DNA from: Stegostoma tigrinum
Taxonomy: Eukaryota
Assembly (NCBI RefSeq): GCF_030684315.1
Contig: NC_081387.1
Location: 26,592,647-26,656,646, forward strand
Direction: 5' to 3'
Length of the DNA: 64,000 nt
Notes under the pieces: model-generated
Seen by the model: only the letters and a program-made list of their open reading frames with translations
What the model was told of the DNA's origin: nothing
The model's database searches: none
Program-made: the position numbers and the translations under genes
Shown here: positions 10,039 to 60,660 of the stretch, piece after piece
How positions within the stretch are numbered: position 1 is the stretch's first letter
Layout of the letters: every line of letters begins with the position of its first letter

Positions 10039-10259
10039 TGTAATATTTTTAAGAGGGAATAGGAACTGCAGATGCTGGAGAATCCGAGATAACAAGGTGT
10101 AGAGCTGGTTGAACACAGCAGGCCAAGCAGCATCTTAGGAGCAGGAAGGCTGATGTTTTGGGCCTTGCTAGGTCCGAAATGTCAGCTTTCCTACTTCCAA
10201 GATGCTGCTTGGCTTGCTGTGTTCATCCAGCTCTACACCTTGTTATTTCTGTAATATTT
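10039..10259. mobile_element. Mini fold-back Penelope-derived element, 10-bp TSD
   Basis: Inverted arms (ataacaaggtgtagagctgg...; ...ccagctctacaccttgttat) flanked by tgtaatattt at 10039-10048 and 10250-10259. Confidence 0.75.
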
Positions 10260-10344
10260 CTTATTTGCTTACTGGTAGTCCTAGTTATGTTGATAGATAA
10301 GTATGGAACCGGAGTGTGTAACTTGTCTCATAGCTAGCTATAAG

Positions 10345-11030
10345 TCACAGAACTGTACAGCATAGAAACCGCCCCTTTGATCAAATGCATCCTGACCAAC
10401 CAGACATCCTAAATAAATCTAGTCTCATTTGGCCCATGTTGCTCTAATCCCTTCCTATTCATATACCCATCCAGTTGCCTTTGCAATGTTATAATTATAA
10501 TCAGCTTTACCCACTTGTTTGGGCAGCTCATACCCACACCGTGTGGTAATGTTACTTTTTGGGTCCCTTTTAAATCTTTTCCCCCAACTTAAATCTATGC
10601 CCTCTAGTTTTGGATACCGCTACTCATGGGGAAAGACCTCGACTTCTCGCCATGTCCATCCCATACAGGCGTCTAAACCTCTACAATGTCACTCCTCAGC
10701 CTCCAGAGAAAATAATCACAGCCTATTCAGCCTCTCCCTGTGACTCAAACCCTCCAATGCTGGCAACATCACTGTGAATCTTTTCTGTGTGCTTCCAAAT
10801 TTCACAACATCCTTCCTAAAGTAGAATTGCACACATTATTCAAAAGTTGCCTAATGAATGTCCAGTACAGCTGCAACAGTACCTCCCAACTTTACCAACA
10901 GTAAAGACAAGCATACTAAATGCCTTCTTCATTATCCTGCCTGCCTGCGACTCCACCTTCACAGAATTATGAACCTGCACTTCAAGGTCTCTTTGTTAAG
11001 CAACACTTCCCTAGGACTTTACCATTAAGT
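10345..11030 (-). mobile_element. CR1 LINE 3' fragment
   Basis: Reverse complement of CR1 tail/RT end, matches other copies. Confidence 0.7.
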
Positions 11031-14000
11031 GGTTTACAATTAAGGATTCTCCTTAGCACTCTTTGCCGAAGCCATCTCCTATCTCATTTGTGACCTGATT
11101 TCCCTCAAGTATATTCCTACTGCCTTTCAACTCTCCTAGGGGATCACTTGATCTCTACTGTCTATACCTGACATATGTTTCCTTTTCAGTCTTGACTGAA
11201 ACCTCCCTTTCTCTGGTCATCAAGTATTCCCTACACTTATCAGCCTTGCCTTCCAAAATGCTCCCTCACTGACACTTCAGTCACCTGCCCTACTTTATTT
11301 CCCAAGAGTAGGTCAAATTTTGCACCTTCTCCAGTAGGTACATCCACATACTGAAATCAGAAAATTTTGTTGTACACACTTAACAAATTCCTCTTCATCT
11401 AAGCCCTTAACACTATGGCAGGCCCAGTCTATGTTTGGAAAGTTAAATATGCCCTACAATACCCACCCGATTATTCCTATAGATGACTCAGGTATCCTTA
11501 TAAATTTGTTTCTCAATTTCCTACTGATGATTGGGGCTGTTCTTTTTTTGGTGGTTGATTGAATATTGCTTGGGAAAATAGGATAATACTTTATTGTACT
11601 TTGGTGAGATGAAATGGCTTGAGATCATGATATGGTAGCATATAGGGTCTCTGATTTCACATAACTGAATTGAGACCACAGAACTTTTCAGTTTGGAATC
11701 ATAGAATTATACCAGTGCAGAAGGAAGCCATTCAGTCCATCGTGTCAGCACAGATTCAATCATTCCCCAATGCCAACCTCTGCATTTTCCCCATATCCCT
11801 GCATAATATATCTATACAATGCCCTCTTCAATGCCTGAGTTGAACCTATCTCTACCATATTTCCACGCAGTGCATTCCATACCCTAAATATTTGTTGTGT
11901 GAAAGGTTTTCTTCTCATAGCACTCACTTCTTTTGCATGTCACTTTAAAGATATGACATCTCATTCTTTCTAGCCTTTTCCAACTGGAAAAAAACTTCTC
12001 TCTCTCTACTCTTGTCCAGTCTGCTCATGATTTTGAAAACCTCTATCTGCCAATTCCACTCCAAGGAAAATAGTTCCAACTTCTTTTTCAACAACAACAC
12101 CAAAAATAAAGAACTAAGAACGCTGGAAATCAGAAGCAAAAGCAGAAATTGCTGGAAAAACTCAGCAGGTCTGGTAGCATGTGGAGAGAAAGAAGATTAA
12201 TGTTTCAGGTCCAGTAAGCTGTCTTCAGAAGTTCTCCCAATTTCTTCAGTGTGTTCTCATAACTGAAGTTTCACATTTCCGTAATCCTTCTTTGTAGGTT
12301 GGATGGTGGGAGACCATTGTGTTCCCCCTGTATTTTAGTCATGTAGATTGAATATTGGAATATATAGTAAAATTTCAAGGTCTGACAATGAGGCTAAATT
12401 TGGAGGCAAGGATGACACAAATTAACTGCAGCAAGACATGAGTAAACTAGGAGACAGGAGGTTGATGGAATTTAATACAGAAGTGAGATGATGGACTTTG
12501 GCAGAACACAGAAGGGAATGCAATACAGACTTCATAGCACAGTTCTGGTCAGAGGGACTTGGGAGTTCATGCACATTGATCTTTGAAGACTGCAGGATAG
12601 TTAATGATCAAATGATGTAGGATCTCTGGTTTTAGAAATGGTGGCATTGAGTTCAATATCCTACAGTTTATGCTGAACATTCACGAAGCTTTAATTATGC
12701 TACAACAAGAAGATTGTGCACCAGTTCCAGACATTACTTTTGAGGAAAGGTGTGAGGGTCCTTGAAGGTGCAGAGAAGAATGGTCAGAATATTCCAGGGA
12801 TGAGAAGACAAGGTTAGCTATAAGGTTTTGCTGGAGAATCTGGAGCCGTTACTCTTGAGGCAATGGACATTGAGGGGAGGTTTGACAGAGATGAACAAGA
12901 TTCTGACTAGATTAGGTGAAGTAGGCATTTCATCTGTTCCCATTAGTTAATGGTCAAAGGACTAATGCAAAAGGTTTGATGGTTCAGGCAAGAGATTTAG
13001 GCTAGTAGTGAAGGCTATTTTTCTTCACACAGTGAGTGATAATGACCTGGACTTTGTGACTTACTAACCTTTTACAAACCTCTGCTTCAGAGAAACATGG
13101 CATGGATTTAGGAGTCTGCATGGCCATCTTGAGTGCCAAAATTACTCTCTTGATGAATGGATGAGTGTTGGTAACAAACAGAGCAGTTCAGGATTTTTCT
13201 TATTCATCCATGGAATGAGTATATTGGTTGCTAAGCCAGCATTTATTGCCATCTCTAAGTACCCTAAGAGGGCAGGTAAGAGTCAGCCACATCGCTGTGG
13301 GTCTGGAGTCACATGTATGCCAGACCAGGTAAGGATGGCAGTTTCCTTCCCTAAAGAACATTGGTGAACCAGATGTGTTTTTCCAACAATGGATTCACGG
13401 TCATTCAGTTTGCAAATAGATAACTTGCAATTGGGTTCCACAATTATGAAGAAGATGGAGCGGGGGCACAGGAGGCTTCATTGCACTGCTCATGACTGCA
13501 ATGTTTATTTTTTTGACGAATTGCAAATTGCTTGGGAGTGGAATTGGAAATTGTGCAATGACTGGCCTTTAGTGCCTATTAAAGGGGTAGATCAAAACAC
13601 TTGTTATGTTGTAAGGATCTAATATATGCATCTTTTCCCATATACATTTCCAGTTATGTAACAACATTTTGTTTCTAACCTTTCCTCTGTTGTCTTCATT
13701 TTAGTTTTGCATGGAATGTGAAACATGAATCTCTTAATAATAGGCAACAATTTATAAAGATATGAAATGGTTTACAAGAAAAAAAGGCTTATTCAACAAG
13801 AACATACATCCACAAACATCTACTACTGACACTCCTTTGTCAGCACCTTCCAAATTTATGACTGCCACAACCTAAGACACCAAGCCAATGGGTATATGAG
13901 GACACCATTTATAAGAACAGACATCTGAGGACACCTGCAAGTTTCCTCCAAGCCACTCACCATCCTCAGATTGGAAAAACTGCAAATGCATTGTTCCTCA

Positions 14001-16835: not shown

Positions 16836-18991
16836 TGCAGTGTTTGAGGAGTGATAAAGGGAACTGCAGATGCTGGAGAATCCAAGATAATAAAGTGTGA
16901 AGCTGGATGAACACAGCAGGCCCAGCAGCACCTCAGGAGCACAAAAGCTGACATTTCGGGTCTAGACCCTTCATCAGAGAGGGGATGGGGTGAGGGTTCT
17001 GGAATAAATAGGGAGAGGGGGGAGGCGGACCGAAGATGGAGAGAAAAGAAGATAGGTGGAGAGGAGAGTATAGGTGGGGAGGTAGGGAGGGGATAGGTCA
17101 GTCCAGGGAAGACGGACAGGCCAAGGAGGTGGGATGAGGTTAGTAGGTAGGAAATGGAGGTGCAGCTTGGGGTGGGAGGAAGGGATGGGTGAGAGGAAGA
17201 ACAGGTTAGGGAGGCAGAGACAGGCTGGGCTGGTTTTGGGATGCAGTGGGGTGCAGGGTTCCCAAGCGGAATATGAGTTGCTGTTCCTACAACGTTCGGG
17301 TGGTGGCATTGTGGCACTGCAGGAGGCCCATGATGGACATGCCATCTAAAGAATGGGAGGGGGAGTTGAAATGGTTCGCGACTGGGGGAGTGCAGTTGTT
17401 TATTGCGAACTGAGCGGAGGTGTTCTGCAAAGCGGTCCCCAAGCCTCTGCTTGGTTTCCCTAATGTAGAGGAAGCCACACCGGGTACAATGGATACAGTA
17501 CACCACATTGGCAGATGTGCAGGTGAACTTCTGCTTAATATGGAAAGTCATCTTGGGGCCTGGGATAGGGGTGAGGAAGGAGGTGTGGGGGCAAGTGTAG
17601 CCTTTCCGCGGTTGCAGGGGAAGGTGCCGGGTGTGGTGGGGTTGGAGGGCAGTGTGGAGCGAACAAGGGAGTCACGGGGAGAGTGGTCTCTCTGGAAAGT
17701 GGACATCTGGGATGTGCGGGAGTGGAATGCCTCATCGTGGGTCTCACCTATCTGGACTCCATTTTCTTCCCTTTGTCCAGATGTCCAAGTTCTTCAAGGA
17801 CCGCAACTTTCCCCCCTACAGTGGTCGAGAACACCCTTGACCGCGTCTCCCGCATTTCCCGCAACACATCCCTCACACCCCACCCCCGCCACAACCGCCC
17901 CAAGAGGATCCTCCTCGTTCTCACACACCACCCCACCAACCTCCGGATACTACGCATCATCCTCCGACACTTCCGCCATCTACAATCTGACCCCACCACC
18001 CAAGACATTTTTCCATCCACACCCTTGTCTGCTTTCCGGAGAGACCACTCTCTCCGTGACTCCCTTGTTCGCTCCACACTGCCCTCCAACCCCACCACAC
18101 CCGGCACCTTCCCCTGCAACCGCAGGAAATGCTACACTTGCCCCCACACCTCCTCCCTCACCCCTAACCCAGGCCCCAAGATGACTTTCCTTATTAAGCA
18201 GAGGTTCACCTGCACATCAGCCAATGTGGTATACTGTATCCATTGTACCCGGTGTGGCCTCCTCTACATTGGGGAAACCAAGCCGAGGCTTGGGGACCGC
18301 TTTGCAGAGCACCTCTGCTCGGTTCGCAATAAACAACTGCACCTCCCAGTCGCGAACCATTTCAACTCCCCCTCCCATTCTTTAGGTGACATGTCCATCA
18401 TGGGCCTCCTGCAGTGCCACAATGATGCCACCCGAAGGTTGCAGGAACAGCAACTCATATTCCGCTTGGGAACCCTGCAGCCCAATGGTATCAATGTGGA
18501 CTTCACCAGCTTCAAAATCTCCCCTTCCCCCACCGCATCCCAAAACCAGCCCAGTTCGTCCCCTCCCCCCACTTCACCACACAACCAGCCCAGCTCTTCC
18601 CCTCCCCCCACTGAGTCCCAAAACCAGCCCAGCCTGTCTCTGCCTCCCTAACCTGTTCTTCCTCTCACCCATCCCTTCCTCCCACCCCAAGCCGCACCTC
18701 CATTTCCTACCTACTAACCTCATCCCACCTCCTTGACCTGTCCGTCTTCCCTGGACTGACCTATCCCCTCCCTACCTCCCCACCTATACTCTCCTCTCCA
18801 CCTATCTTCTTTTCTCTCCATCTTCAGTCCGCCTCCCCCTCTCTCCCTATTTATTCCAGAACCCTTAGCCCATCCCCCTCTCTGATGAAGGGTCTAGGCC
18901 CGAAGCATCAGCTTTTGTGCTCCTGAGATGCTGCTGGGCCTGCTGTGTTCATCCAGCTTCACACTTTATTATCTTGCAGCGTTTGAGGAGT
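16836..18991. mobile_element. Penelope-like element with inverted 5' arm; GIY-YIG endonuclease ORF 17683-18651; 17-bp TSD
   Basis: CTSANVVYCIHCTRCGLLYIGETKPRLGDRFAEH (PLE GIY-YIG) on both strands; inverted pseudo-LTRs; tgcagtgtttgaggagt 16836-16852 / tgcagcgtttgaggagt 18975-18991. Confidence 0.9.
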
Positions 18992-19481: not shown

Positions 19482-19693
19482 CTGAATTTGAAAGTTGTTT
19501 CAGAGATATTTACATTTGCTGGAGAGTCTGAGATAACAAGCTGCAGAGCTGCATGCACACAGCAGGCCAAGCAACAAAGCTTATGTTTCGGACCTAGACG
19601 CTTCTCGAAACGTCAGCTTTCCTGCTCAACTGATACTGCTTGGTCTGCTGTGTTCATCCAGTTCTACACACCTTGTTGTCTCTGAATTTGAAA
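19482..19693. mobile_element. Mini fold-back Penelope-derived element, 12-bp TSD
   Basis: Inverted pLTR-end arms; ctgaatttgaaa at 19482-19493 and 19682-19693. Confidence 0.7.
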
Positions 19694-20200: not shown

Positions 20201-20282
20201 CAACTGGTCGGTGTCAACGGCGGCAGAAGGAGCGTTAGCCTGGTGCAGTTAGTCACGGATGGCCGTCCCGAGATAGGAAATC

Positions 20283-22193
20283 ATGCCAGCAGCCATTGGT
20301 ATTGACCTGGGTACCACCTACTCCTGTGTCGGGGTCTTCCAGCATGGCAAGGTGGAGATCATCGCCAATGACCAGGGCAACCGCACCACCCCCAGCTACG
20401 TGGCCTTCAATGACACTGAGAGGCTCATCGGAGATGCTGCCAAGAACCAGGTAGCCCTGAACCCACAGAATACCATCTTTGATGCCAAGAGGCTCATCGG
20501 AAGGAGGTTTGATGACCCAGTCGTGCAGTCTGATATGAAGCACTGGCCCTTCCAGGTGGTGAATGATGGAGGGAAGCCTAAGGTCAGGGTTGAATATAAA
20601 GGCGCCAGTAGATCTTTTTACCCCGAGGAAATCTCTTCCATGGTGCTGACCAAGATGAAGGAGACAGCAGAGGCTTACCTGGGACACACTGTCAGTAATG
20701 CTGTTATCACGGTGCCTGCTTACTTCAATGACTCCCAGCGCCAGGCAACCAAAGACGCCGGGGTGATCGCTGGCCTCAATGTCCTCCGTGTTATCAATGA
20801 GCCAACGGCAGCTGCCATTGCCTATGGCCTGGACAAGAAGGGCAGAGGAGAACACAATGTTCTCATCTTTGACTTGGGGGGTGGCACCTTTGACGTGTCT
20901 ATCCTCTCCATTGACGATGGTATCTTTGAAGTGAAATCGACAGCGGGCGACACCCACTTGGGAGGAGAGGACTTTGATAATCGCATGGTCAATCACTTCA
21001 TTGAGGAGTTCAAGCGTAAATACAAGAAGGACATCAGTCAGAACAAGAGGGCGGTGAGGAGGCTGAGGACAGCCTGTGAAAGAGCCAAGAGAACCCTGTC
21101 TTCCAGCACACAAGCCAGTATTGAAATTGACTCTCTGTATGAAAGCTTAGACTTCTACACCTCCATCACCAGGGCTCGGTTTGAGGAACTCAATACCGAC
21201 CTGTTCAGAGGCACTCTGGAACCAGTGGAGAAAGCTCTGAGAGATGCCAAGTTGGACAAGTCACAGATCCATGACGTTGTCTTGGTTGGGGGCTCCACCC
21301 GCATTCCCAAGATCCAGAAACTGCTGCAAGATTTCTTCAGTGGCAAGGAGCTGAACAAGAGCATCAATCCTGATGAGGCTGTGGCCTATGGGGCAGCTGT
21401 TCAAGCAGCTATTCTGATGGGGGACAAGTCCGAGAATGTTCAGGACCTACTTCTCCTGGATGTTGCTGCCCTGTCATTGGGTCTCGAGACAGCAGGAGGT
21501 GTCATGACTGCACTCATCAAGCGCAATACCACCATTCCCACCAAGCAGACCCAGATCTTCAGCACCTACTCTGATAACCAGCCTGGTGTGCTTATTCAGG
21601 TGTATGAAGGAGAGCGAGCCATGACCAAAGACAACAATCTCCTGGGGAAATTTGAATTGAGTGGCATTGCTCCTGCCCCTCGTGGTGTGCCACAGATCGA
21701 GGTCACCTTTGATATCGATGCCAATGGCATCTTGAATGTCTCTGCCATTGATAAGAGCACTGGCAAATCGAACAAGATCACTATCAGCAATGACAAGGGC
21801 AGGCTGAGTAAGGAGGAGATTGAGAGGATGGTGCAGGAAGCAGAAAGTTACAAAGCCCAAGATGATATGCAACACAAAAAAGTCTTGGCTAAAAACTCCC
21901 TAGAGTCATATGCATTCAACATGAAGAATTCAGCAGAGGAAGAAAAAATAAGCAGCAAGATTAGTGAGGAAGACAAGAAGAAGGTAACTGAAACCTGTAA
22001 CCAAGCAATATCCTGGCTGGAGACACACCAGGATGCAGAGAAGCATGAGTATGAAGATCAACTGAAGAAGTTGGAGAATATCTGCAACCCCATTATTGCC
22101 AAGTTATATCAGGGAGATGTGCCTGTTGGCTTCGGTGACCAGGCTGGTAAAGGAAATGCCTTTAGTGGCCCAACAATTGAGGAAGTTGATTGA
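20283..22193 (+). CDS. hsp70: Intronless cytosolic HSP70 (copy 2, 636 aa)
   Basis: All three HSP70 signatures; C-terminal GPTIEEVD; AATAAA 22514. Confidence 0.97.
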
Positions 22194-25497: not shown

Positions 25498-25650
25498 AAA
25501 TTTATACAGAGATATTGGGAACTGCAGATGCTGGAGAATCCGAGATAACAAAGTGTGGAGCTGGATGAACACAGCAGGCCAAGCAGCATCTTAGGAGCAC
25601 AAAAGCTGACGTTTCGGGCCTAGACCCTTCATCAGAAAAGCAAATTTATA
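25498..25650 (-). mobile_element. Solo Penelope pLTR end with intact hammerhead (25608-25635), 9-bp TSD
   Basis: aaatttata at 25498-25506 and 25642-25650; rc CTGATGAagggtctaggcccGAAACGTC. Confidence 0.8.
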
Positions 25651-27956: not shown

Positions 27957-29876
27957 ATGGCAAGCAGGGGGACAGCCATTGGTATTGACCTGGGCACCAC
28001 CTACTCCTGTGTCGGGGTCTTCCAACATGGCAAGGTGGAGATCATCGCCAATGACCAGGGCAACCGCACCACCCCCAGCTACGTGGCCTTCAATGACACC
28101 GAGAGGCTCATTGGAGATGCTGCCAAGAACCAGGTAGCTCTGAACCCACCCAACACCATCTTTGATGCCAAGAGACTCATTGGCAGGAAATATAATGACC
28201 CGGTTGTCCAGTCTGACATGAAGCACTGGCCCTTCCAGGTGGTGAATGATGCAGGGAAGCCAAAGGTCAAAGTCGAGTACAAGGGTGAAGATAAGACCTT
28301 TTACCCTGAGGAAATCTCTTCTATGGTGCTGACCAAGATGAAGGAGATCGCTGAGGCCTACCTAGGCTACACTGTCACTAATGCTGTTATCACAGTACCT
28401 GCTTATTTCAATGACTCCCAGCGCCAGGCAACCAAAGATGCTGGTGTGATCGCTGGTCTCAATGTCTTACGGATCATTAATGAGCCAACAGCAGCTGCCA
28501 TTGCCTATGGCCTGGACAAGAAGGGCAGAGGAGAACGCAATGTTCTCATCTTTGACCTGGGGGGTGGCACCTTCGATGTGTCTATTCTCACCATTGACGA
28601 TGGTATCTTTGAAGTGAAATCGACGGCAGGTGACACCCACTTGGGTGGAGAGGACTTTGATAACCGCATGGTCAATCACTTCATTGATGAGTTCAAACGT
28701 AAATACAGAAAGGAGATCAGTGACAACAAGAGGGCAGTGAGGAGGCTGAGGACAGCCTGTGAAAGAGGCAAGAGAACCCTGTCTTCCAGCACACAAGCAA
28801 GTGTTGAGATTGACTCTTTGTATGAAGGCATTGACTTCTACACCTCCATCACCAGGGCTCGGTTTGAAGAACTGAATATCGACCTGTTTAGAGGCACTCT
28901 GGAACCCGTGGAGAAAGCTCTCAGAGATGCCAAATTGGATAAAGCTCAAGTTAATGATATAGTCCTGGTTGGAGGCTCCACCCGCATCCCCAAGATCCAG
29001 AAATTGCTGCAAGATTTCTTCAATGGCAGAGATTTAAATAAGAGCATCAATCCTGATGAGGCTGTGGCCTATGGGGCAGCTGTTCAAGCAGCTATTCTGA
29101 TGGGGGACAAGTCTGAGAATGTCCAAGATCTACTGCTACTGGATGTTACTCCGCTATCATTGGGTCTGGAGACAGCAGGAGGTGTCATGACCACACTCAT
29201 CAAGCGTAACACCACCATTCCCACCAAGCAGACACAGATCTTTACCACATATTCTGACAGTCAACCTGGTGTTTTGATCCAAGTATATGAAGGAGAGAGA
29301 GCAATGACTAAGGACAACAACCTCTTGGGCAAATTCGACCTCAGTGGGATCCCTCCTGCGCCACGTGGTGTACCACAGATTGAGGTCACCTTTGATATTG
29401 ATGCAAATGGCATCTTGAATGTGTCAGCTGTGGACAAGAGCACTGGCAAAGAGAGCAAAATCACCATCACTAATGACAAGGGCAGATTGAGTAAGGAGGA
29501 GATTGACAGGATGGTGCAGGAAGCAGAAAGATACAAAGGACAGGATGATATGCAGCGTGAGAAAATTGCAGCCAAGAATTCCCTGGAGTCATATGCATTC
29601 AACATGAAGAGTTCAGTGGAGGAAGAGAAAACGAAAGGCAAGATCAGTGAGGAAGACAAGAACAAAGTCATTGAAAAGTGTAACCAGGCCATATCTTGGC
29701 TGGAGGCAAACCAAGCAGCAGAGAAGGAGGACTTTGAGCAGCAATTGAAAGATTTAGAAAAAGTATGCAAACCCATCATTGCCAAACTCTACCAGGGAGG
29801 TATGCCTGAAGGGCCATTCTCAGAACAAGTCAAAAAGGACCCTTCTGGTGGACCAACAATTGAAGAAGTTGATTGA
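27957..29876 (+). CDS. hsp70: Intronless cytosolic HSP70 (copy 3, 639 aa)
   Basis: HSP70 signatures, canonical [13 protein letters not shown] linker, GPTIEEVD end; ATTAAA 30063, AATAAA 30365. Confidence 0.97.
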
Positions 29877-31225
29877 AACTTTAACTGTCTTGAATGTAAT
29901 ATCTTTTTCAGTTGGTCTCTCTTCTCCCCCAACCTCCCTGAATTTGCAGCTGTCCTTTAGAATGTTTGTGTCCTTCGTAAATCCAGCTGATTTGGACAGT
30001 GTTTGCGTGGTTCGATAAATGATTGCATACATTTCCAATGTTTAGGTGTTTGGATGGTGGCAATTAAACGTGTCAATGGTGATTTTTTTTCTGCAAACTG
30101 TTTCCTGTATGTTTTGTACATTGAGTGCTTTATGTTCCTTTAGCTGGTAATGGAGGCAAAGAGCATTCTCAGTGCTTTCTTAGTTTTCTGCATAACTACA
30201 AGGATGCACCATATGATTCAGAGATTCAGTCACTTGTCATTAATCCTGAGATATTAATGTTAGGACAGGTTATACTTGCAGTTAAGCTAGTCAGCTATCT
30301 TTTTTTGTCATGTAGAACACACGAAGAATTAACCTGAGATGTAGTTGGAATACTGTTCCCTTATAATAAACAACATAGATTCCATTTTCATATGGGCCAT
30401 GAAAAGGTGACATTACAAGAATTGGCAGTCTTTGCAGACTTAATTTGCATGCAACTACTGGGGAAAATAATCACATCTAAAAATCTTTGTTGGAAAATGC
30501 ATAACATCCGAGCAGTAGCTATAAATATTAGTTTCTCTCCGTGTACGACCAATTTTCAGATGATGTCCTCTGTACTCCACAAAAAGCTTGTATAACAATT
30601 TGAATGATTTCTTACTCTAAACATGAATGCTAAATTCTATTGTATAATATCGCTGTAACCTTAGGGTTTGTTTTTACTTTGTGATCATGTATTAAACTTG
30701 CCTCATTATACATTACTGTACCCAAAATAACTTAATTCTAATTGGATGTAGAACATATAATTTTAGAAAACTATCCTTGTGACTTCCTCTGGCAACTTGA
30801 TTTTCTCAAACTACATGAAATTTAAAGTCACCCGTGATAAACATACTGTCTTTTTTTACAGGCTCTTATTTTCTCCCTGATCTATTCTCTGTCCTAAAGA
30901 AAAGCTGCTAGTGGGTTTGTAGACTACTCCCAGCAGCAGCATTTTCCCATTGTTATTTCTTTAGCCTCCACTTATATGGATTATACAGCACGAGTTTCCA
31001 AGATCATTTCTTGTTATTTGTACTTATTGCATCTAAACCAATAACAAAGCTATCCCATGGGTCTTCCTGCATGTCTTTCTGAATAATCACATACCCCACT
31101 ATATAGTTCCCAGCTTTATAAAAACATTTCCATAATGTCCATGGGATCACACTCATTCATCTCTATTTGTGCCATTAATTCATTAATTTTGTTCTCAATA
31201 CTTAGCAGTATACCTAAAAACAAAT

Positions 31226-31520
31226 GGTGGCTCAGTGGTTAGCATGGCTGCCTTGCAGGCCTAGGGACATGGATTCCATTCCACCCTTGGGCAACTGTCT
31301 GTGTGGAGCTTGCACATTCTCCCTGCGTCTGCATTAGTTTCTTCCCACAGTCCAAAGATGTGCAGATTAGGTGGGCTGGCCATGCTAAGTTGCCTGTAGT
31401 GTTCAGGGATGGGTAGCATAGGTGCGTTATAGGGGGATGGCTCTTGATGGGATGCTCCAAGGGTCAGTGTGGACCTGTTGTGCTGAAGGGCCTGTTTTCA
31501 CACTGTAGGGATTCTATGAT
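31226..31520 (+). mobile_element. tRNA-derived SINE (HE1-like)
   Basis: ggtggctcagtggttagc head, same core and tail as 14476-14785. Confidence 0.8.
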
Positions 31521-33389: not shown

Positions 33390-33572
33390 ATAGAATTCCT
33401 GCAATGTGGAAGCAGGCCATTGGTCTATCAGGTCCACATTGACCCTCCGAAGTGCATCCCCTATCCTATCCCTGCATTTCCCATGTGCAAACTCTAGACA
33501 GACAATTGCCCAAGGCTAGAATTGAACCTGGGTTCTCTGGTGCTGGGAGGCTAACCACTGAGCCACATGCTA
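33390..33572 (-). mobile_element. Internally deleted SINE
   Basis: ctaaccactgagccac (rc A box), aattgaacctggg (rc B box), tail. Confidence 0.65.
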
Positions 33573-35454: not shown

Positions 35455-35482
35455 GACGTTTCGGGCCTAGACCCTTCATCAG
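35455..35482 (-). ncRNA. Minimal hammerhead ribozyme in Penelope pLTR
   Basis: rc CTGATGA-a-gggt ctag gccc-GAAAC-GTC: intact core, stem II, palindromic ACGT stem III, GUC cleavage triplet. Confidence 0.75.
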
Positions 35483-36724
35483 AGAGGGGGATGGGGGGAG
35501 GGAACTGGAATAAATAGGGAGAGAGGGGGAGGCGGACCGAAGATGGAGAGTAAAGAAGATAGGTGGAGAGAGTGTAGGTGGGGAGGTAGGGAGGGGATAG
35601 GTCAGTCCAGGGAAGACGGACAGGTCAAGGAGGTGGGATGAGGTTAGTAGGTAGCTGGGGGTGCGGCTTGGGGTGGGAGGAAGGGATGGGTGAGAGGAAG
35701 AACCGGTTAGGAAGGCAGAGACAGGTTGGACTGGTTTTGGGATGTAGTGGGTGGGGGGGGGGGAAGAGCTGGGCTGGTTGTGTGGTGCAGTGGGGGGAGG
35801 GGATGAACTGGGCTGGTTTAGGGATGCAGTGGGGGAAGGGGAGATTTTGAAACTGGTGAAGTCCACATTGATACCATATGGCTGCAGGGTTCCCAGGCGG
35901 AATATGAGTTGCTGTTCCTGCAACCTTCGGGTGGCATCATTGTGGCAGTGCAGGAGGCCCATGATGGACATGTCATCAAGAGAATGGGAGGGGGAGTGGA
36001 AATGGTTTGCGACTGGGAGGTGCAGTTGTTTGACATTCCACATTAAGCAGAGGTTCACCTGCACATCTGCCAATGTGGTATACTGCATCCACTGTACCCG
36101 GTGTGGCTTCCTCTACATTGGGGAAACCAAGCGGAGGCTTGGGGACCGCTTTGCAGAACACCTCCGCTCGGTTCGCAACAAACAACTGCACCTCCCAGTC
36201 GCAAACCATTTCCACTCCCCCTCCCATTCTCTTGATGACATGTCCATCATGGGCCTCCTGCACTGCCACAATGATGCCACCCGAAGGTTGCAGGAACAGC
36301 AACTCATATTCCGCCTGGGAACCCTGCAGCCATATGGTATCAATGTGGACTTCACCAGTTTCAAAATCTCCCCTTCCCCCACTGCAGCCCTAAACCAGCC
36401 CAGTTCATCCCCTCCCCCCACTGCACCACACAACCAGCCCAGCTCTTCCCCCCCACCCACTACATCCCAAAACCAGTCCAACCTGTCTCTGCCTCCCTAA
36501 CCGGTTCTTCCTCTCACCCATCCCTTCCTCCCACCCCAAGCCGCACCCCCATCTACCTACTAACCTCATCCCACCTCCTTGACCTGTCCGTCTTCCCTGG
36601 ACTGACCTATCCCCTCCCTACCTCCCCACCTACACTCTCTCCACCTATCTTCTTTACTCTCCATCTTCGGTCCGCCTCCCCCTCTCTCCCTATTTATTCC
36701 AGTTCCCTCCCCCCATCCCCCTCT

Positions 36725-36752
36725 CTGATGAAGGGTCTAGGCCCGAAACGTC
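36725..36752 (+). ncRNA. Minimal hammerhead ribozyme in Penelope pLTR
   Basis: CTGATGAagggtctaggcccGAAACGTC, intact core. Confidence 0.75.
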
Positions 36753-37159
36753 AGCTTTTGTGCTCCTGAGATGCTGCTTGGCCTGCTGTGTTCATCCAGC
36801 CTCACATTTTATTATCTTGTTCACTAATATGCTGTGTTTCCTGTCCATGCTGCCATTGTCCCTTTTAGTTTATGGGTTGCAACTTGGCATGTAATCTTGC
36901 TATTTGTCCCTTTGTCAAATGCTGTCTGGAAGTTTATGAACACCACATCCACAGTAACACCCTCATCAACCCACTTTCTGACCTTATTTAAAAAGAAACA
37001 GATTAATTGACATTTCACCATTAACAAGATCATGCTGATTTTCCCTAACTTATCCAAGTTAATAATATGTCCCATATTATTATTATAAAGTAAGTGTAAG
37101 TGTATCTGTGGAATTCTTTGCTGTAGAAAGTTGTCAAGGCTGTATCATTAAATGTATTC

Positions 37160-38600: not shown

Positions 38601-40599
38601 CTTCAATGCTTTAGCAATTTTTTCCCTGGCCTCCCTCAAGGCTGAGATAGACAGGATTTAGTCAGTAAGGGAAAGAAGGGTTATGGGAGAAAGGTAGATA
38701 AGTAGTTGAGGCTTATCAGATCAACCATGATTGAATTGAATGATGGAGCACCTTGATGGGTCAAATGGTGTAATTTTACTCCTGCATCTTAATGGGTAAG
38801 CCTTGCAACTTTGCTCTCACGTCACCCTTTTTCATGATGAGGATTGGGCCTCATTACTGAATACTGATGTTGACTTCCTGCTTAATAAACTCTCCTTTAT
38901 CTCCCTAAAACATGCCTGCTGAATCTGAATCCTCATTTACGTCTGTTGTTGGTACCTATATGAACTATGATCTCCAGCTGATCAACCCCCATTTCACCAT
39001 GTTTGCAACTGCCTAGTGACATCCTGCATCCTTACAAAAGAAAGGCACTCTGACATCCTGGAGTAACATCTGTGGGTGAAAGAAAACATTCTATTCTCTG
39101 AACTAAGACGCTTCCACCACTATCACACATCCTGTCTTCTTCTTTCCCTTGACAACTGAGTCACATATGATGCCGTGACCTGTCTCACTGTACTTTCCAG
39201 GAAATGTATCACTTCAGCAGTATTCTGAATGAAATCCTGGTCAGGCATGAACACAGAACTGCACAGCACAGGAATGGGCCCTTCAGCCCACTATGTTGTG
39301 CCAAAAAGGACACCAAATGAAACTAATCCCTTCCTGCCCTTGAAAAATATCCCACCATTCCTTGCATATTCATGGGCTTATCTAAAAATCCTATTGCCTC
39401 TATTGTATCTGCCTTCACCACCACCACACCTGGCAGTACATTCCACCCCAGTGCAAGATAAACAGATGTGGGATTGACGATGACGAGGAAGAGTGAGAGT
39501 AGAAGATGACGACAAGATGGAAGGTTTATGATAGGCTGGAAGGCAGCAGAAATCAAATGAAGAAAAGGATGATGGTACATGGGGTACGCTAAAATTGGGG
39601 TGACAATTAGGTGTGAAAATGCCAAAGGTGTGTGGTGAAAGGATATAAATCAGCATCAAATGGCATTTAAAAAAAGATTTTTAAAGTTACAAAATGGAGT
39701 CAAAAGCTATGATCAGAAATTTCTGTGTGATCTTACAAACTGCCTTATTGAAAGATGAGATAGTAAGAACAGTCAATGCTGGTGTCAGAGGCAGTAAAGG
39801 AGTAGGAAAGTTGATGTTTCAGGTCAGGACCCTTCTTCAGAAATCCAGAAATTCTGAAGAAGCATCCTTACCCTAAAAAAAATCAACTTTCCTACTCCTC
39901 TGATGCTGCCTGGCCTGCTGTGTTCCTCCAGCTCCACACTGCGTTACAATGAAAAGGTAAGTTGCCTAATCTTCAGTTTGCATTCAGCCTCACAGGGAAG
40001 GTGCATTTCATCTCTTCAACCATCTCACAGGCATTCTCTCTTGTTCTTTCCTCTAATCTCCTCTTGCTCTGCCCCTGTACTTGCAGCAAAGTTGTTGCAT
40101 CTCTAGCTTTATCCAGTACTGGATGAAGAGTCATCAGCCTGAATGATTAGCTTTGTTTCACTCATTGAGTCATGAAAGGACAGGAGGTGGCCATTCCATC
40201 CATTTAATCCACGTTAGCTCTAGTACAGCAGCCTTATCAATCTTGTTACTCTGGTCTATCCCAGCATCCCTGCTGGTGTATTTCTCTCAAGTGTTCACAG
40301 AACTTTTGAGTCAAACTCATGCAGCATGGAAACCGACCCTTTGGCCAATTACAGGGCGACCAGGTTTCCTAAACTGAACTCTACCTACCTGCACTTGGAC
40401 AATATCCCTCCTAACCACGTACCCGTCCAAACGTCTTCTAAATGTTGTCATTGTAACTGTATTCGCCTCCAGCAGCTCAAACAACATGTACACCACCCTC
40501 TGCGCGGGAACGTAGCCCCTCGAATCCCTTTTAAATCTTTCCCCTCTCGCCTTAAGCCCAATGTGCAGCCGGATGAATACTTCCAGCCGCTTGGCAGGC

Positions 40600-47105: not shown

Positions 47106-49593
47106 TATATCTAGTACTAGTTCTGGTATGTTATCCTTCAGTTTTCTTCCAACCAGGATTGATTTCTTGGCTTGATGTTGTTAGAGTGCAGGCTATGCTG
47201 GGCCATGAGATTGCAGATTGCAGATTGTGATTGTATGCAATTCTGTTGCTGATGACTCTCAGTCCCTTGTGGAGGCCCAGTCTTGAGCTGCGAAATCTGT
47301 TGGAAATCTGTCCCATTCAGCACAGTGGTAATGTCCTACAGGACAGTAGAGGTCATCTTCACAGTGAATATGGGACCTTGTCTCTGGAACAATGTGGTAC
47401 CCACTCCTACCAAAACTGTCATAAGCAGAAGTGTTTGCACTGAGCTCCAGTATATCTTTCCCTCTTTGTTCTGTCACCATTTACCGCAGGCCTTTAAATC
47501 TTGGCCAGCTCAATCAGTGGTGGTGCTATGGAGTCACACTTGGCTATGGCCGTTGAAATTCTTGCCTGTTCTCTGCACTCGCTACCTCAAGTGCATCCTC
47601 AGAATTGTCTTTGACGTGGAAAAATGCTGATCCAAAAACTTGATGCTATGCAGGACAAAGCAACCAGCTTGATAGGTACCACATCCACTCCCTCCTCCAC
47701 CAATACTCAGTACATGAGTGGGTACCTTCTAAGAGATCCACTGCTGAAATTCACCAATGATCCTTCAGACAGTGCCTTCCCAACCTTCACCATTTCGAAT
47801 GACACGGGCAGCAGATCTGTGGGAAGACCATGACCTGCAAGTTCCCCTCCAAGCCCCTAATTCTAATTCTGACTTGGAAATATATTGCCATTCCTTCAGT
47901 ATCGCTGTGTCAAAACCCTGAATTTCCCTCCCTCGTGGCATTGTAGGTCTGCCTACAGCACATGGACTGCAGTGTTTCGAGAAGTTAATTTGCCACCTCA
48001 GGGCAAATAGGATCGGACAATAAAAGTTGGTCTTGGCAGTAATGAAAACAAACTACTGTGGATGCTGGCCATCTGAGATTCAAAAACAAATTGCTGGAGA
48101 AACTCAAGTCTGGCAGCACCTATGGAGAGAGAAACGGTTAATGTTACAGATGGCTGTCGATAAAGTCCCACATAAGAGTTTAGCCTGCAAAACTAAAGCC
48201 CTGTGGGATTGGAGGTCATGTATGAAACAAAACTAGTTCGCAGGAAGAGAATAGCGTCTGCTTTCAGAGTGGCAGGCTTGAACTCCAGCTAGTCACAATA
48301 TATTGACGAATTAGATGAGGAAACTACATGTTATACCTCCAGGTTCGCTGATGAGACAAAACTCTGAGAGGGTTTGCTGTGAGGAGATGCTCTGTGTCCA
48401 GAGATCATCCAGCTTGTTTTGGACAAGTTCAGTAAGTGTGCAAATAAATGGCAGATGCTGAATAATATGGATAATGAGGTTATCCACTTGGGGAAAACAC
48501 AGTCAGATTATCATTTGATGGATTAGAAAAAGAAAATTGTACAACAAGCCCTGAGTATCCAAGCGCACCGGTTGCTGAAAGTAAGTGTGCAGGTGCTGAT
48601 GAAGGCAAAATGTTGACCTTGATAGCAAGATTTGTGTATAGGTGCAGGGAGTCTCGCTGTAACTGTACAGCGCATTGTTAAGACTGCTCCTGGAGTAGTG
48701 TATGCAGTTGTGGCCACCTCGTTATCAGAGGAAGGATGCTTTAGCTGTTGAGAGAGCATGAAGAAGTTTCAACAGACTGACTATAAAGGATCAGAGTTAG
48801 AACTTTTAGGACAGTTGAGAAATTTCTTTACCCAGAGAGTGGTGAGCCTTTAAAATGCTCTGTTACATGAAACTGTTGAGGTTAAAAACGTTGAGGGCTT
48901 TCAAGAAAGATGTAGATATAGTTCATGGGACTAATGGTATTAGAAATATCAACTGTTATGGGGAGAAAGGGAGAACAGTGTAGTGAGTTGGATGATCAGC
49001 CATGATCATTTTGAATGGCAGAGCAATCTCAAGACCTGTTTTTCCTATTTTCTATGTTTGAGTCCACTGTGACTCGTGTTTGGAGCTGGTTTTGCAGTGC
49101 TTGCATCACTTGTTTCAATAAGAAAAGTTGTCACTGATCTGCAACATGAATTGTCTTTGTATCCCCTTCTGCTTGACCTGAGCGTTCCCAGTCTTTGCCG
49201 ACTTCACCTTGGTGCAGATGGTATTTGGCTGTGACTGACTGCGTGTTCTTTTGATAAGTTTGAGTTGTCCGTATAGCACTTGGTCTTGATTGATGGGACT
49301 TGGTCTACAGGCTGTCAATGTAAGACGGTCATTTGTTAGTCCAGTGTGGAATCTGGGAGAAGCTACTTCCTTACTGCCCAGAGTATGATTAGCATGTGGA
49401 CCTTACTGTGACAGAGAGGTGGCTTCTGAGGGTAGGGGCACTCTGTTGGACTAATTGAGCTGAATGACTTGTGCTGTGAATATTTTTAAGACTGACAATG
49501 GGAAGCTGTGTGCTGTACATTTGGAAAGAATGATAATGCCTAAACTCTAATACAAACATAATAATATATTATTTTCCTCCCATTTATTTTTAG

Positions 49594-54835: not shown

Positions 54836-55269
54836 AAGTTAATAATCCTCATGGGAAAGTGTAATGCCAGAAATAACTGACGAGTTCACTCTTTGCAACT
54901 TTTGCTTTAACTTTAATATCAACCTGATTTGACACAAATTCATGTGAATTGAGGCACGTGATGCATCACCTCAAAGTAAATTTCACTTCAAGTACTTGAT
55001 ATAACCAACATATAGCTGATGTAACCACAGACATTTGACTCGTTCCCTGCATAAATGTGTCACTATGTAGCTGTACTTTTCCACAGAATGTTCTTTATTC
55101 ATGCAAACGAGGCCTGGACTCTGATTCAATAAGACCTCTCATCTTTGTGAAAGATCTTTTATTTCGTTATTTCCTCCTTTTATTTTGGACTGTGGGCTAA
55201 AAAGAGAGGTGCTTCTTTAAACCAAGGTGATATGTGTAAAGATATGCTTGCTGTTTTGAAAATCCTGTT

Positions 55270-55482
55270 TACTAGAGTAGAATGCGAGATAATGGGAACT
55301 GCAGATGCTGGAGAATCCAAGATAATAAAGTGTGAAGCTGGATGAACACAGCAGGCCAAGCAGCATTTCAGGAGCACAAAAGCTGACGTTTCGGGCCTAG
55401 ACCCTTCTTCAGAGAGCCTGATGAAGGATCTAGGCCCGAAACGTCAGCTTTTGTGCTCCTGAGATGCTACTAGAGTAGAATG
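55270..55482. mobile_element. Mini fold-back Penelope element with two back-to-back hammerheads, 15-bp TSD
   Basis: tactagagtagaatg at 55270-55284 and 55468-55482; HHR (-) 55385-55412 and (+) 55418-55445. Confidence 0.88.
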
Positions 55483-55699
55483 TTACCTTTTGCCAGAATA
55501 GCGAGAGGAAAGGCACAGAATGGAGCTGGTTGGTTCTAAACTAGGGGACCGTTGCTTGACAAGTACTTTGATCTGCTTCTGTGGGAGCAGTGTAGCAGAA
55601 ATGTCTATCTTGCAAAGTGCGAGCATCAAGAATTTGTCTTACATGGGGTTGTAACAAAAAAAAATCCCTTGACAGCTAGATGGCTTCCTTCCTGTCACT

Positions 55700-55930
55700 T
55701 TGGGTGCTGTAGTGGTAATGTCACTAGCCCAGACTTCTGGATTAATAGTCCAATGTTCTGAGGACCTGGGTTCAAATCCTATTACAGCATTTGAATTTTA
55801 AGAAAATCTGGAGTAGAGAGTAATGTGTGAACAGTGTTGATTTTCGTAAAAACACATCTGATTCACTAATGGGGGAAGGAAGTGTGCTGTCCTTACCTAG
55901 TCTGGCCTGGACCCACAGCAATGTGGAAGA
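55700..55930 (+). mobile_element. Old tRNA-derived SINE of a second family
   Basis: tgtagtggtaatgtcact head, gggttcaaatcc B box; related copy at ~23650-23990. Confidence 0.5.
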
Positions 55931-57669
55931 CATTGTCAGGGTAGTAACTAGTGGAGCCCATATCCTGTAAATAAAAGAAACAACCCCTCTAGATTGATTA
56001 TCCAGACAGTGATGTAAGGTCCCTGTTATACATTAAATATTCTTTACACCAGAGGAGAAAAGCAGACTGCAAGTGTTTGTATAGTGTATATTTTTTACAA
56101 AAGGACAGATCAAAATAGGAGACAACACACTGTGGAGCTGGAGGCACACAGCAGGCTAGGTAGCATCAGAGGAGCAGGAATGTTGACGTTTTGGGTTGTG
56201 ACTCTTCTTTTGAAATTGGGAGGGCAAAGGGAGCTGGGAAATATAGGAGGGGTGGGGCTGGTGAAGGTAGGTGTGATGGTGATAAGTGAGTGCAGGTCAG
56301 GAGTGGTGGGGATTTGTCAGTGAGGTTGAAGGGGCAGATAGGAGGGACAGAAGATGGACAAGTTGTGTCAGGTCAAGAAGGCAGGGATGAGTGGGAGGAC
56401 TGGACATGAGACGAGGCTGGGAGTGGGGAGATTTAATTTTAAAAGCAGTGAATTCTTTTTCAGTACCTTCTAGCCGTATTTCCTTTCTCAGTACCTGCCT
56501 AAACATGCACTGCGCAAGTTTTATAACTTTAAGAGCTGTAAAGATGCTTCACAGTGATTTGGGCAGATACACTGATAAGTGTGAAGTTGTTTTTCCTACT
56601 GAATGGGCAATGGCAAGTATGATTTTAATGTTGATAGATTGGGAAAGGTCAATGTGCACAGGGACCTACCTGGATGCCCTTGGACGCTGGTCACTAAAAA
56701 CAAACAGTTAGGAAAGTAAATGCTGTGTTGTACGTCATTGCGAAGGGATTTGGGTACAGGAGTAAGGAAGTCTTATTGCTACTTTGTATGAGTGATTGCA
56801 GTAAAATAAAATAGTGTTCCCTTTGGTGTGTTTGATTATATGGGTCAAATCCTGCAGTTTTGGAGAGACAAGACCAGAAGCCACATCTGGCACACTTTTA
56901 TCGTAGCATTAATAACTGCAGACTCCAAAGGCCAAGGACTTCATTGTTCACTTTGCTGCTGAGAAACATGTGCCCAAGATGAGCCAGCTTGCGCTGGGTG
57001 TTTCAAAAACATCCACATGTCAGCGATATTGGGTTTGATCCGGGTTTACAGGGGAATTCAATGACAGATTGGAAATCCTGCGACGTTGCATGGGTGGTGG
57101 GTTTACTGTGCTACACGATGCCTATTGGGATAGCTGTCAGTGTATTTATCCAGCATTGCAGCATTTGCACTTCCCTTAACGCTCAAAGAAAGTCAGAGCA
57201 AGTAACTTTGTATCAGGTTTACTGTGAGCATGCAATTTGCCAAACTTCCAATTTGATCATCCTGCAGCAACTCCATCAGGTTGACATTTGTCATGTGAAT
57301 CTTTCTGCACGATTGTAAGTGAGCGCTGACTCGCCATTGTTGAGAATTGAAATCTATTTTTAATTGCATGATAGGAGGCGTTTCTGTAACTGGCTTGTGA
57401 CTCGGGGAAGAAACTTTGACATACATTGTGTCAGCATGACCTTCCACTTTCCCACTGCTTGTCTGTTCATGTGTCATGGCGAATGGAGCTGTGAACTGAA
57501 GAGGTGGAACGCTGATAGTGTTCTTCTCTGAACCTCAAAGGCATTATCTCACTTTCATCCTCTTCAACTTTTGCTTTCACTCACTTGTGTTTGTATAAGA
57601 CAGCAGCTCTGACTGTCTCTCTCCCCTGTTTCTCTGAAATCACTGCAATTGAGGGAATTAGTGGAAAAT

Positions 57670-58450
57670 GACACAGAGCCATACAGCATGGAAACAGACC
57701 CTTCGGTCCAACCAGCCCATACTGACTGCAGTCTCAATCTGCTTATCCTTGGCTCATATCTCTCCAATCATTTCTTATTCATTTACTTACCTAAATGCCT
57801 TTTAAATATTGTAACTGTACCTGCATCTACCGCTTCCTCTGTAAGTTCATTCCACACACGAAGCACTCTGTATTTTAAAAAAAATTGCCCCTCGTGCCTT
57901 AAATCTTTTTTTCCTCTCCCCTTAAACGTACCCCTAGTCTTGAAAACCCTCGGCCTAGGGTTGAAACAACCTTTGCCGCTCATTTTCTATACGTTACCTC
58001 TCAACCTCCTACACTCCAGTGATAAAAGTCCCAGCCTTTCCTTATAACTCAAACCCTCCGTTCTCAGCAACATCCTGGTAAAGGTTTGCTGAAACTCTCT
58101 TCAGCTTAGTAATATCCTTCCTATAATGGGAGACCAGAACTGGACTCAGTACTCCAGAGGCGGTCTCACTATTGGCCTGTACACCCTCAACGTAGCATCC
58201 TAAGTCCTTTACTCAAAGGCCTGAGCAATGAAGTCAAGCGTGCTAAATGCCTCCTTAATCATCCTATCTACATGTGATGCGAACTTCAAGAATTGTCTAC
58301 CTGAACCTCTAGGTCTCTCGTTCTACAACACCATCTAAGGCCCACTTTTAATTGTATAAGTCTTGTCTTTATTTCTTTTACCAAAATGCAATATGTTGCC
58401 TTTATTGAAATTAAACTCCATTTGCCACTCCACAGCCCATTGACTCAATT
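57670..58450 (-). mobile_element. CR1 LINE 3' fragment
   Basis: rc of RT end and tail. Confidence 0.75.
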
Positions 58451-59459
58451 GACAGTCAAAGGAAAACAAAGTTTAAAGGTGGGGAAACTCCTTTTAAACA
58501 ACGTGCTTTTTTGAAATATATATAATTCACAGAATGTGGGCTTTACTGGCTGGGCCTGCATTTATTGCACACTCCTAATTGCCCAGAGTGTGGTTAAGAA
58601 TCAACTATATTGGTATGGGAGTGGAGTCACATAAATTGTAATGACCATAGGTTTCCCTTCTCTAAAGGAAACCCAACAGATTATTACAAGCATCAACGGT
58701 GTTGCTTTGGCACCATTAAATCAGCGTTTTGATTCCAGCTCTTATTAAATTCCATTGTCACTGTCTGCCCCGAGGGGGTGCACATGCACATCCCTAGAAT
58801 GTTAGCCTGGGGTTCTGGATTATTAATGCAGTGAGATTGTCACCAGGACAAAAAAAAAGAAAAATCTGGAACCTGTGGAGATAGTGAGGAAAATGGTTAA
58901 AAATCTATGCAATCATAGAAACTAGGAGTAGATCGTTAATTTCTTGAGCCTATTCTGACATTCATTGAGATCATGGCTAACCTGATAACTCCACATTCCT
59001 GCCTAACCTTCAATAATCTTTCACTCCCTTTGTTATCACTGTCTTAAAAAATATCCATGTAAACTTCATCCACTGTCCTTTGATGAAGGAAACCAGCTGG
59101 AAACAGATTGATGACCTCACAATATGCTTACCATTAATGTGATAGTTGATGTGTTCACTTTGAACATCAGATTAGCCCAAAGCCCTTTTTCAGGGATACA
59201 ACGGCAAAATGCTGCAGGCGTCAGAAACCTGAAAGAAGACCAGAGAATGCTGGGGTTACTGTACCTAATAGATGGAGGAATGTCTGTGGGGAGTAAACCA
59301 GTGTTATAGGTCAATGGTAGCCCCTTTTCAGAACTGGGTTTGAAACATTAACTGTGTTTTCATCTTCTGGAATGTGGCCAGATCTGCTGAGTTTCTCCAG
59401 CAATTTCTGTTTTCTCTTTGTTTGGATTCAGTAGCAGCAGTTCTTTAAACAGTTATAGT

Positions 59460-60660
59460 CGCAGAGTCATACAGCACAGAAACAGACTCTTTTGGTTCTA
59501 TGATAACAAGGTGTAGAGCTGGACGAACACAGCAGGCCAAGCATCATCATCGGATCAGGAAGGTTGACCTGAAATGTCAGCTTTTGTGCTCCTAAGATGC
59601 TGCTTGGCCTGCTGTGTTCATCCAGCTCCACACTTTGTTATCTCGGATTCTCCAGCGTCTGCAGCTCTTTGGTTTTACGTGCTTGTGTCGACTAAGTTTC
59701 CCAAACTAAACCAGTCCCATTTGTCTATGCTTCGACCATATTCCTCTAAACCTTTCCTATTCATGTACCCACTCAAATGGCTTTTAGCTGTTGTAACTGT
59801 ACCTGCATCTACCATTTCCTTGGCAGCTCATCCCATATATGACCCACTCTCTGTGAAAATGTTGCCTCCTCAAGCTCAATTTAACCATTCTCATCTCACC
59901 TTAAAATTATGCTCTCTCGTTTTGAACTCCCTTTTCCTATTGAAAAGACCTTTGCTACTCACCTTGTCTGTGCCTCTCATGATTTTATAAACCTCTGTAA
60001 AGTCATCCCTCAACCTCCTGCACTCTAGTGAAAAAAGTCCCACCTCTTCCAACCGCCTTATACCTCAAACCCTCCTTTCCCAGTAACATCCTGGTAAATC
60101 TTCTATGCATCATCTTCAATTTAGTAATATCCTTCCTGTGGCAGGGTGACCATAACTGTATACAGTACTCCAAAGGCCTCATCCCAGCTCCTGTACTCAA
60201 TCATCTTAGTAATGAAGGCAAGTGTGTCAGCTATCACCTTTACCACTCTATCTACTATGATGCAACTTTCAATGAATTATGTACCTGAATCCCTATGCCT
60301 CTCTGTTCTACAACACTCCCCAGGGCCCTATTATCATTAACTGTGTAAGTCCTGCCCTCGTTCGTCTTACCAAAATGCAACACCTTGCATATATCTAAAT
60401 TCAACTCCATCTGCCACACCTCAACACATGGGCCCAATTGATCAAGATTCCCTTTGTAGTCCTAGACAACCTTCCTCGCTGTCTGCTGTGCTACTAATCT
60501 TGGAGTCATCTTACTAACCATGCTTCCTATACTCTTATTCAAGTCAATTCCAAGCTAAATTATTGGCGAACAGCAGTGGACCCACCATGACCCCTGAGGA
60601 ACACTGATGGTCGTCGGCCTCCAGGCTGCAAAACATCCCTCCAACAACAGCCTCCATCTC
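59460..60660 (-). mobile_element. CR1 fragment with nested mini fold-back Penelope element (59500-59670)
   Basis: CR1 tail interrupted by inverted pLTR arms flanked by imperfect ctcttt(t)ggtt repeats. Confidence 0.7.

Follow-up and report, generated by a model that had tools for sequence, protein, structure and literature searches.

Endonuclease-bearing (EN+) Penelope-like elements (PLEs), which include the Penelope/Poseidon, Neptune and Nematis groups, leave insertions whose layout has been described in several papers. In the available passages of PMC8557442 they are often accompanied by an adjacent inverted, 5'-truncated copy and a tail of 30-40 bp; those of PMC3846280 report inverted pseudo-long terminal repeats (pLTRs), a 31-bp tail and target site duplications (TSDs) of 8-10 bp in Adineta; and those of PMC4209133 describe minimal hammerheads paired on opposite strands, 100-700 bp apart, that were attributed to truncated PLEs. 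For a PLE of Anolis, excerpts of PMC11167929 report that the enzyme, predicted to form a dimer, cleaves and extends both strands of AT-rich targets and begins reverse transcription from two internal positions, which delimit the tail; the integration steps that follow first priming are stated there to be unvalidated. Here we describe insertions of this kind in a 64,000-nt stretch of the shark Stegostoma tigrinum (contig NC_081387.1, positions 26,592,647 to 26,656,646; hereafter the window; G+C 44%). We think it probable that they are 5'-truncated 3' ends of a Neptune-type PLE, lying head to head between TSDs, and that each is likely an independent event built from two separately primed cDNAs. 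Given the published layout (PMC8557442, PMC3846280 and PMC4209133, as excerpted), the structure as such is already known, and the shark inserts count as unremarkable transposon remnants of a type already described, which matter chiefly for annotation.

Self-BLAST of the window with three inserts as queries recovered all seven inserts and the three relics named in an initial annotation of this DNA, whose coordinates serve as insert labels (E10039, E16836, E19482, E25498, E35341, E55270 and E59500). The sample therefore consists of seven insertion events with 13 arms in one 64-kb window. Positions within the element are given as d, the number of nt counted from the outer tail end of E35341 (window 35354 = d1); on this axis the inner end lies at d35-37, the predicted cleavage triplet at d102-104 and CUGAUGA at d123-129. 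The inserts resemble those of EN+ PLEs, as far as these are covered by the excerpts of PMC8557442 and PMC3846280, in having 3' ends joined head to head, a tail (about 36 nt) on one side only, short TSDs, strong 5' truncation, a GIY-YIG endonuclease with CCHH at the C terminus, a Zn-finger-like linker and a hammerhead in the terminal repeat. They differ in that neither a full-length copy nor a partial-tandem source copy was found within the window, and the TSDs, at 9-17 bp, are somewhat longer than the 8-10 bp of the Adineta elements.

The two long inserts bear on how the arms were made. E35341 (35341..36830) is young and consists of a tail arm at 35354-36033 (minus strand, 680 nt) and a tailless arm at 36031-36817 (plus strand), joined with 2-3 nt of microhomology; the tail arm holds 36 nt that its partner lacks, and the tailless arm, extending further 5', holds about 149 nt that are unique to it. 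E16836 (16836..18991) has a tail arm at 16853-~17741 (minus strand) with two internal deletions of about 125 and 240 nt, so that about 365 nt in two stretches of the tailless arm (~17776-18974, plus strand) are absent from it. Its junction is complex, with a jump at TGTC microhomology and about 35 nt of filler. Since neither arm contains the other in either long insert, a simple fold-back is excluded for them and two separately primed cDNAs are favoured. The arms of each long insert nevertheless belong together: in E35341 they differ at only 3 of 512 shared columns, 21 private sites are common to each insert's pair, and no column among the 512 puts arms of different inserts together, indicating that both cDNAs came from one source lineage. 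No source for the filler of E16836 (17742-17775) was found in the window, where the best other match has 11 nt, and the tail arm reaches this filler via the ~240-nt jump to the region where the other arm begins.

In the mechanism that we favour, the enzyme would nick both target strands, one cDNA would be primed at the outer tail end and the other at a start site about 36 nt further in, and the two would likely be joined at their truncated ends. This supposes that the shark enzyme acts like that of the Anolis PLE, that both cDNAs usually derive from the same source lineage, and that most cDNAs stop early, at the hammerhead region. The shark element and the Poseidon element of Anolis carolinensis (PAc; PMC11167929, as excerpted) share an ATG inside the CUGAUGA core and AT-rich targets, and the two positions at which shark 3' ends fall, about 90 and about 126 nt past that ATG, are comparable to the PAc start at +111-118 and the second start bounding the tail. 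PAc differs in belonging to the Poseidon clade, which is without a Zn-finger linker, and the shark ATG frame closes after 13 codons. Priming by PAc is reported to occur without homology, whereas some shark inner junctions show 1-2 nt of overlap between target and element.

Four further inserts are short and two-armed, of similar sizes (135-201 bp). E10039 (10039..10259), of an older subfamily, has a tail arm at 10049-10165 (element sense on the minus strand) and a tailless arm at 10168-10249 (plus strand), both stopping in hammerhead loop II (d115-117). E19482 (19482..19693), likewise of an older subfamily, has a tail arm with an internal deletion at 19494-19604 (minus strand, ending at d124) and a tailless arm at 19606-19681 (plus strand, ending at d110). 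E55270 (55270..55482) pairs a tail arm at 55285-55416 (minus strand, ending at d133) with a short arm at 55418-55467 (plus strand, d80-130). E59500 (59487..59674) is flipped, with its tailless arm at 59502-59568 (minus strand, ending at d101-104) and its tail arm on the right at 59568-59667 (plus strand, ending at d112). The seventh insert, E25498 (25498..25650, minus strand), is a single tail arm (25507-25636) that ends at d130, one base past CUGAUGA, plus 5 extra nt. Hence six of the seven units show the inverted layout, joined head to head.

All seven inserts are flanked by candidate TSDs. These are exact in E10039 (10039-48/10250-59, 10 bp), E19482 (19482-93/19682-93, 12 bp), E25498 (25498-506/25642-50, 9 bp), E35341 (35341-53/36818-30, 13 bp) and E55270 (55270-84/55468-82, 15 bp), span 17 bp with one mismatch in E16836 (16836-52/18975-91; exact core 11 bp), and in E59500 (59487-97/59665-74) amount to 7 exact nt, or 10 of 11 with one indel. 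Among 3000 random pairs of 30-nt windows, matches of at least 7 nt occurred in 5.1%, of at least 9 nt in 0.9% and of at least 13 nt in 0.07%; we therefore regard six TSDs as secure and that of E59500 as probable. Pooled, the TSDs are 74% AT, compared with 55.5% for the window. The tail was present on exactly one arm in all seven units, although decayed in E19482 and shortened in E59500, where it was still alignable; a tail 24-mer matched the window five times at up to 3 mismatches and never in 100 shuffles. The outer end of the tail varies, whereas five of the six tailless arms end at about d35-41. The initial annotation had given TSDs of 9-17 bp, an extra tail of ~30 nt on one arm and arms of 60 to ~850 bp. 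That TSD range holds for six inserts and is weaker for E59500 (about 10 bp); the tail is indeed confined to one arm, its length being about 36 nt in the reference (range about 24-43 nt); and the size series stands, the paired overlap being shortest in E55270 (50 nt) and longest in E16836 (about 830 nt). The TSDs of both young long inserts (inner ends 18974/18975 and 36817/36818) begin with TG, which are also the next two element bases, and that of E10039 likewise begins with TG. Either 2-nt primer pairing or a preference in cleavage might explain this shared TG.

Several observations weigh against separate priming of independent insertions, and a first group of them bears on self-priming. In the fold-back model, raised in available passages of PMC3846280 and, for the tail, of PMC8557442, a single strand is made, folds onto itself at a short palindrome and then serves as template, and trimming of one end by the endonuclease leaves a one-sided tail. 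In the two-armed minis the tail arm reaches equally far or further (117/117, 124/110, 133/130 and 112/104), so that the partner lies within the tail-arm span in all four, and fold-back with trimming is compatible with every one of them. The junction of E10039 falls at a CTAG palindrome, palindromes at inverted junctions are noted in the excerpts of PMC3846280, and the private variants common to both arms of the long inserts would also be expected from copying one strand. The short arm of E55270, which starts at d80, departs from the usual inner end, and the two-priming step is drawn by analogy with Anolis. Fold-back nevertheless fails for the two long inserts, whose tailless arms exceed the tail arms in length, and for the discordant arms of E59500; the junctions of E35341, E19482 and E55270 are asymmetric, and in vitro data in the part of PMC11167929 available link the tail to two reverse transcriptase (RT) start sites. 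On balance we hold it to be an unlikely general explanation.

E59500 itself is a further difficulty. Its arms differ at 15 of 71 sites: the tail arm is young and differs from E25498 at 1 of 70 sites, and the tailless arm is old, differing at 11 or more of 70 sites from every full-length arm compared. This age gap argues against a simple one-step event, and a single-source event of that type does not explain the insert, which could represent two different RNAs, a nested insertion or gene conversion. Here the possibility arises that the hairpins formed after integration, by inverted duplication at the DNA level, nested insertion or gene conversion of single-arm copies; E59500, a young arm beside an old one with the weakest TSD, and the internal deletions of E16836 would fit it. 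Neither the TSDs of 10-17 bp that hug both outer ends of five two-armed inserts nor the fixed tailless-arm end in five of six cases is expected from later rearrangement, and as a general origin we find it barely credible. For E59500 alone, an origin after integration may apply.

Assembled contigs gave results both for and against separate, independent insertion. Contig sets from two runs of the same species and from related organisms A and B, four runs in all, were compared; their summed depths were not treated as copy numbers, coverage of organism B was thin, and none of the contigs listed for these two organisms spans E59500. The initial annotation had suggested looking for empty sites with a single TSD copy, and no full site of this type was found among the contig joints listed. 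Contigs of both same-species runs cover the two flank junctions of E55270. A contig of organism A aligns from 55468, the first base of the right TSD, preceded by 46 unaligned letters, and this is consistent with E55270 being absent there. The search for empty sites thus yielded a contig that fits absence and no single TSD copy among those joints. In addition, a few high-depth joints, e.g. 55359 to 59588 (2 contigs in three of the four runs), are possible shared junctions; they have only 20-24 letters on the short side and are flagged unreliable.

Shared junctions would be expected if the minis were a non-autonomous, MITE- or SINE-like family (miniature inverted-repeat transposable element; short interspersed nuclear element) of ribozyme hairpins copied as a unit by the PLE enzyme. 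Their similar sizes fit such a family, and non-autonomous PLE derivatives are known, namely the Chlamys-N elements in the excerpts of PMC8557442 and the animal retrozymes in those of preprint 10.64898/2026.07.22.740005. The central junctions, however, were different in 6/6 inserts (d117/117, 124/110, 133/130, 112/101-104, 680/about 829 and complex in E16836), and diagnostic columns place the arms in at least three subfamilies of different ages. Moreover, in three of the four two-armed minis the arms are cut through the hammerhead core, leaving it incomplete, and in E55270, where both arms show the core pattern, folding predicts that the core is base-paired within a duplex of about 48 bp (-104 kcal/mol for the whole insert). 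The MITE-like ribozyme hairpins of the initial annotation, for which it proposed a comparison of mini junctions, therefore find no support in the window, where every junction was unique, as it had anticipated for independent truncations. We consider such a family very improbable, and the minis are likely dead-end products that do not transpose as units.

MITEs are defined by symmetric terminal inverted repeats and a fixed TSD length. The shark inserts do not fit this definition of a DNA transposon derivative, as their ends are asymmetric by 24-79 nt and their TSDs vary from 9 to 17 bp. Animal retrozymes, in the available text of preprint 10.64898/2026.07.22.740005, are like the shark inserts short non-coding PLE-derived sequences with a type-I hammerhead; they form head-to-tail tandems with a hammerhead in each unit, unlike the shark inserts, which are head-to-head or single. 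Nor do the inserts match a non-LTR retrozyme, which comprises two or more consecutive head-to-tail units that each hold a complete hammerhead; hammerhead pairs in the window were always on opposite strands, with at most one sense hammerhead per strand.

The identity of the element was deduced from its protein remnants and its hammerhead. Both long inserts gave a Pfam match to GIY-YIG at E about 5e-4, under the gathering cut-off, and the two Cys and two His of CCHH were invariant across 8 aligned sequences. In E16836 the C-terminal fragment of the PLE open reading frame (ORF; 17776..18654, plus strand) comprises the end of the RT thumb, a CX4CX2C linker (C-NRRK-C-YT-C) and the GIY-YIG endonuclease with CCHH; the endonuclease fragment is also present in E35341. 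Homologues of the PLE fragment (n=17) were nearest in Stegostoma (88% identity), Rhincodon (86%) and Chiloscyllium (60%). The RT core is absent from the window copies; the RVT_1 match of P0002 was weak, and the shark homologues of 86-88% identity carry YIDD. According to the available part of PMC8557442, a CX2-5CxxC linker between RT and endonuclease marks Neptune and Nematis, and Neptune and Poseidon are the PLE clades reported from vertebrates in the literature excerpts; judged by this linker and these clades, the element is an EN+ PLE that is probably of the Neptune type. Protein domains, motif matches and the excerpts of PMC8557442 and PMC4209133 thus support the initial annotation in its assignment to PLEs and in the inverted pLTR-type arms, the tail on one side and the minimal hammerhead motif that it described.

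A hammerhead 30-mer matched the window 7 times, compared with 0 in 100 shuffles. The complete core pattern was found in 6 of 13 arms, among them those of E35341 (35455-35482, minus strand; 36725-36752, plus strand) and E25498 (25608-25635), and in none of E10039, E19482 and E59500. As in the metazoan PLE type-I hammerheads of PMC4209133 (in the text available), it has CUGAUGA and GAAA cores, an extra nucleotide before stem II, a palindromic loopless helix III (GAAACGUC) and nearby pairs on opposite strands; it differs in its predicted helices, helix I being limited to 2 bp, a length shared with the D. virilis variant, and helix II having 4 bp. Rfam gave 6 matches in the window at E<=1, none of them a hammerhead and none at gathering score, the best being miRNA models far below threshold; the miRNA matches reflect the hairpin shape, and hairpins of this sort could be misannotated as MITEs or microRNA precursors. 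Metagenome contigs and viral contigs, scanned for exact patterns, gave 0 loci in each case.

Nine of the 13 arms end within a 34-nt zone, d101-134; the remaining four reach d680 or further. With a memoryless truncation rate chosen to be as favourable as possible, this clustering has P about 9e-5 by arm and 0.003 by event (5/7), values that are optimistic because the zone around the hammerhead was delimited with the data already in view. In the two same-species runs, loose contig ends piled up at 55413 (d130; 1338 and 1306 ends, 37% agreement) and at the tail end (1461 and 1479), the figures covering the six largest piles per run. In the runs of the related organisms the loose consensus at the d130 place is G-rich, representing continuing copies of another subfamily, and the reference arm ends 3 nt beyond the pile; for these reasons the d130 pile is only partly evidence of true ends. 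Three causes are conceivable for the clustered stops: the RNA may have a defined 5' end, the enzyme may stall at the hammerhead or in the C-rich tract immediately 5' of it, or this may be where the unit of some subfamily begins. The isolated hammerhead region folded no better than shuffles (z 0.22; 102/200 fold as well), its best predicted fold pairing the core with the cleavage site, and a strong RNA hairpin cannot, given this result, be claimed as the cause. Ribozyme-cleaved RNA was rejected as the general template: only 1 of 13 arms (E59500 tailless, d101-104) fits the predicted cleavage site.

Tentatively, the short arms might be run-off products, i.e. 'strong-stop'-like cDNAs primed in a 5'-proximal pLTR/tail copy and ending where the RNA itself has a defined 5' end, a few bases 5' of the hammerhead core, with two RNA templates per insertion that are occasionally of different subfamilies (E59500); we regard this as a possibility with the odds against it. 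A precedent for a 5'-proximal hammerhead comes from D. virilis, in which, as excerpts of the two papers give it, the transcription start is followed after 46 bp by an intron (PMC2377424) that extends to hammerhead helix I (PMC4209133). Short PLE insertions are in themselves nothing new: those arising de novo in Chlamydomonas have a median length of 128 bp (PMC9977147, available part). If the run-off reading is true, the genome preserves the RNA start of the element in thousands of records, each of roughly 130 nt, and shark genomes offer a natural read-out of late PLE integration steps. A high-copy family with clean TSDs allows separate arm priming and the use of two RNAs to be tested by sequence alone, and the same family can test the hammerhead region as an RNA end versus a polymerase stop. 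In the literature, as far as the sources extend, we found no description of the shark family, of solo pLTRs or of a pile-up of 5' ends at the hammerhead, and the structural terms of such insertions are absent from the available text of the killifish Neptune paper (PMC12602865). The clustered stops and the mixed-arm insert E59500 are the only parts that we did not find in print; the family itself may already be catalogued in Repbase or Dfam.

Three old relics of the family accompany the inserts: a single arm at 9862..9940 (plus strand) that starts at CUGAUGA, a two-armed copy at 39798..39940 whose arms both end just past the hammerhead 5' core, and a single arm at 56120..56256 (minus strand) that extends past the hammerhead into the upstream pyrimidine-rich region. 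TSDs were looked for at the flanks of all three and none was found. A second, older PLE-like family with a different tail left relics at ~12110-12250, 48064-48149, 59378-59413 and 9364-9388, and the copy near 12200 shows, by eye, a decayed hammerhead-like motif. Among the joints listed, those from 59413 to 55286 and from 59644 to 55286, with about 80 contigs per same-species run, bring a young tail end close to where an older PLE copy ends; possibly, new insertions cluster beside old PLE copies.

Four of the PLE inserts sit between three intronless Hsp70 ORFs, which form a same-strand cluster (7443-9509, 20277-22193 and 27957-29876, plus strand; Pfam HSP70 confirmed for the first). The window also holds two old inverted repeats, 41212-42257/42619-43675 and 61249-61851/63356-63946, of 69% and 78% identity. 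The first contains RVT_1 fragments unrelated to the PLE, probably copies of long interspersed nuclear elements (LINEs); the second gave no Pfam match. Between the arms of the second lies an ORF (61950-63122, plus strand) with a calcium homeostasis modulator (CALHM) domain (E 3e-18), within which is a gap of 160 N at 62117-62276. Finally, related repeats with tRNA-like head motifs, which we take to be SINEs, occur at 31215-31330, 33483-33566 and 34290-34400.

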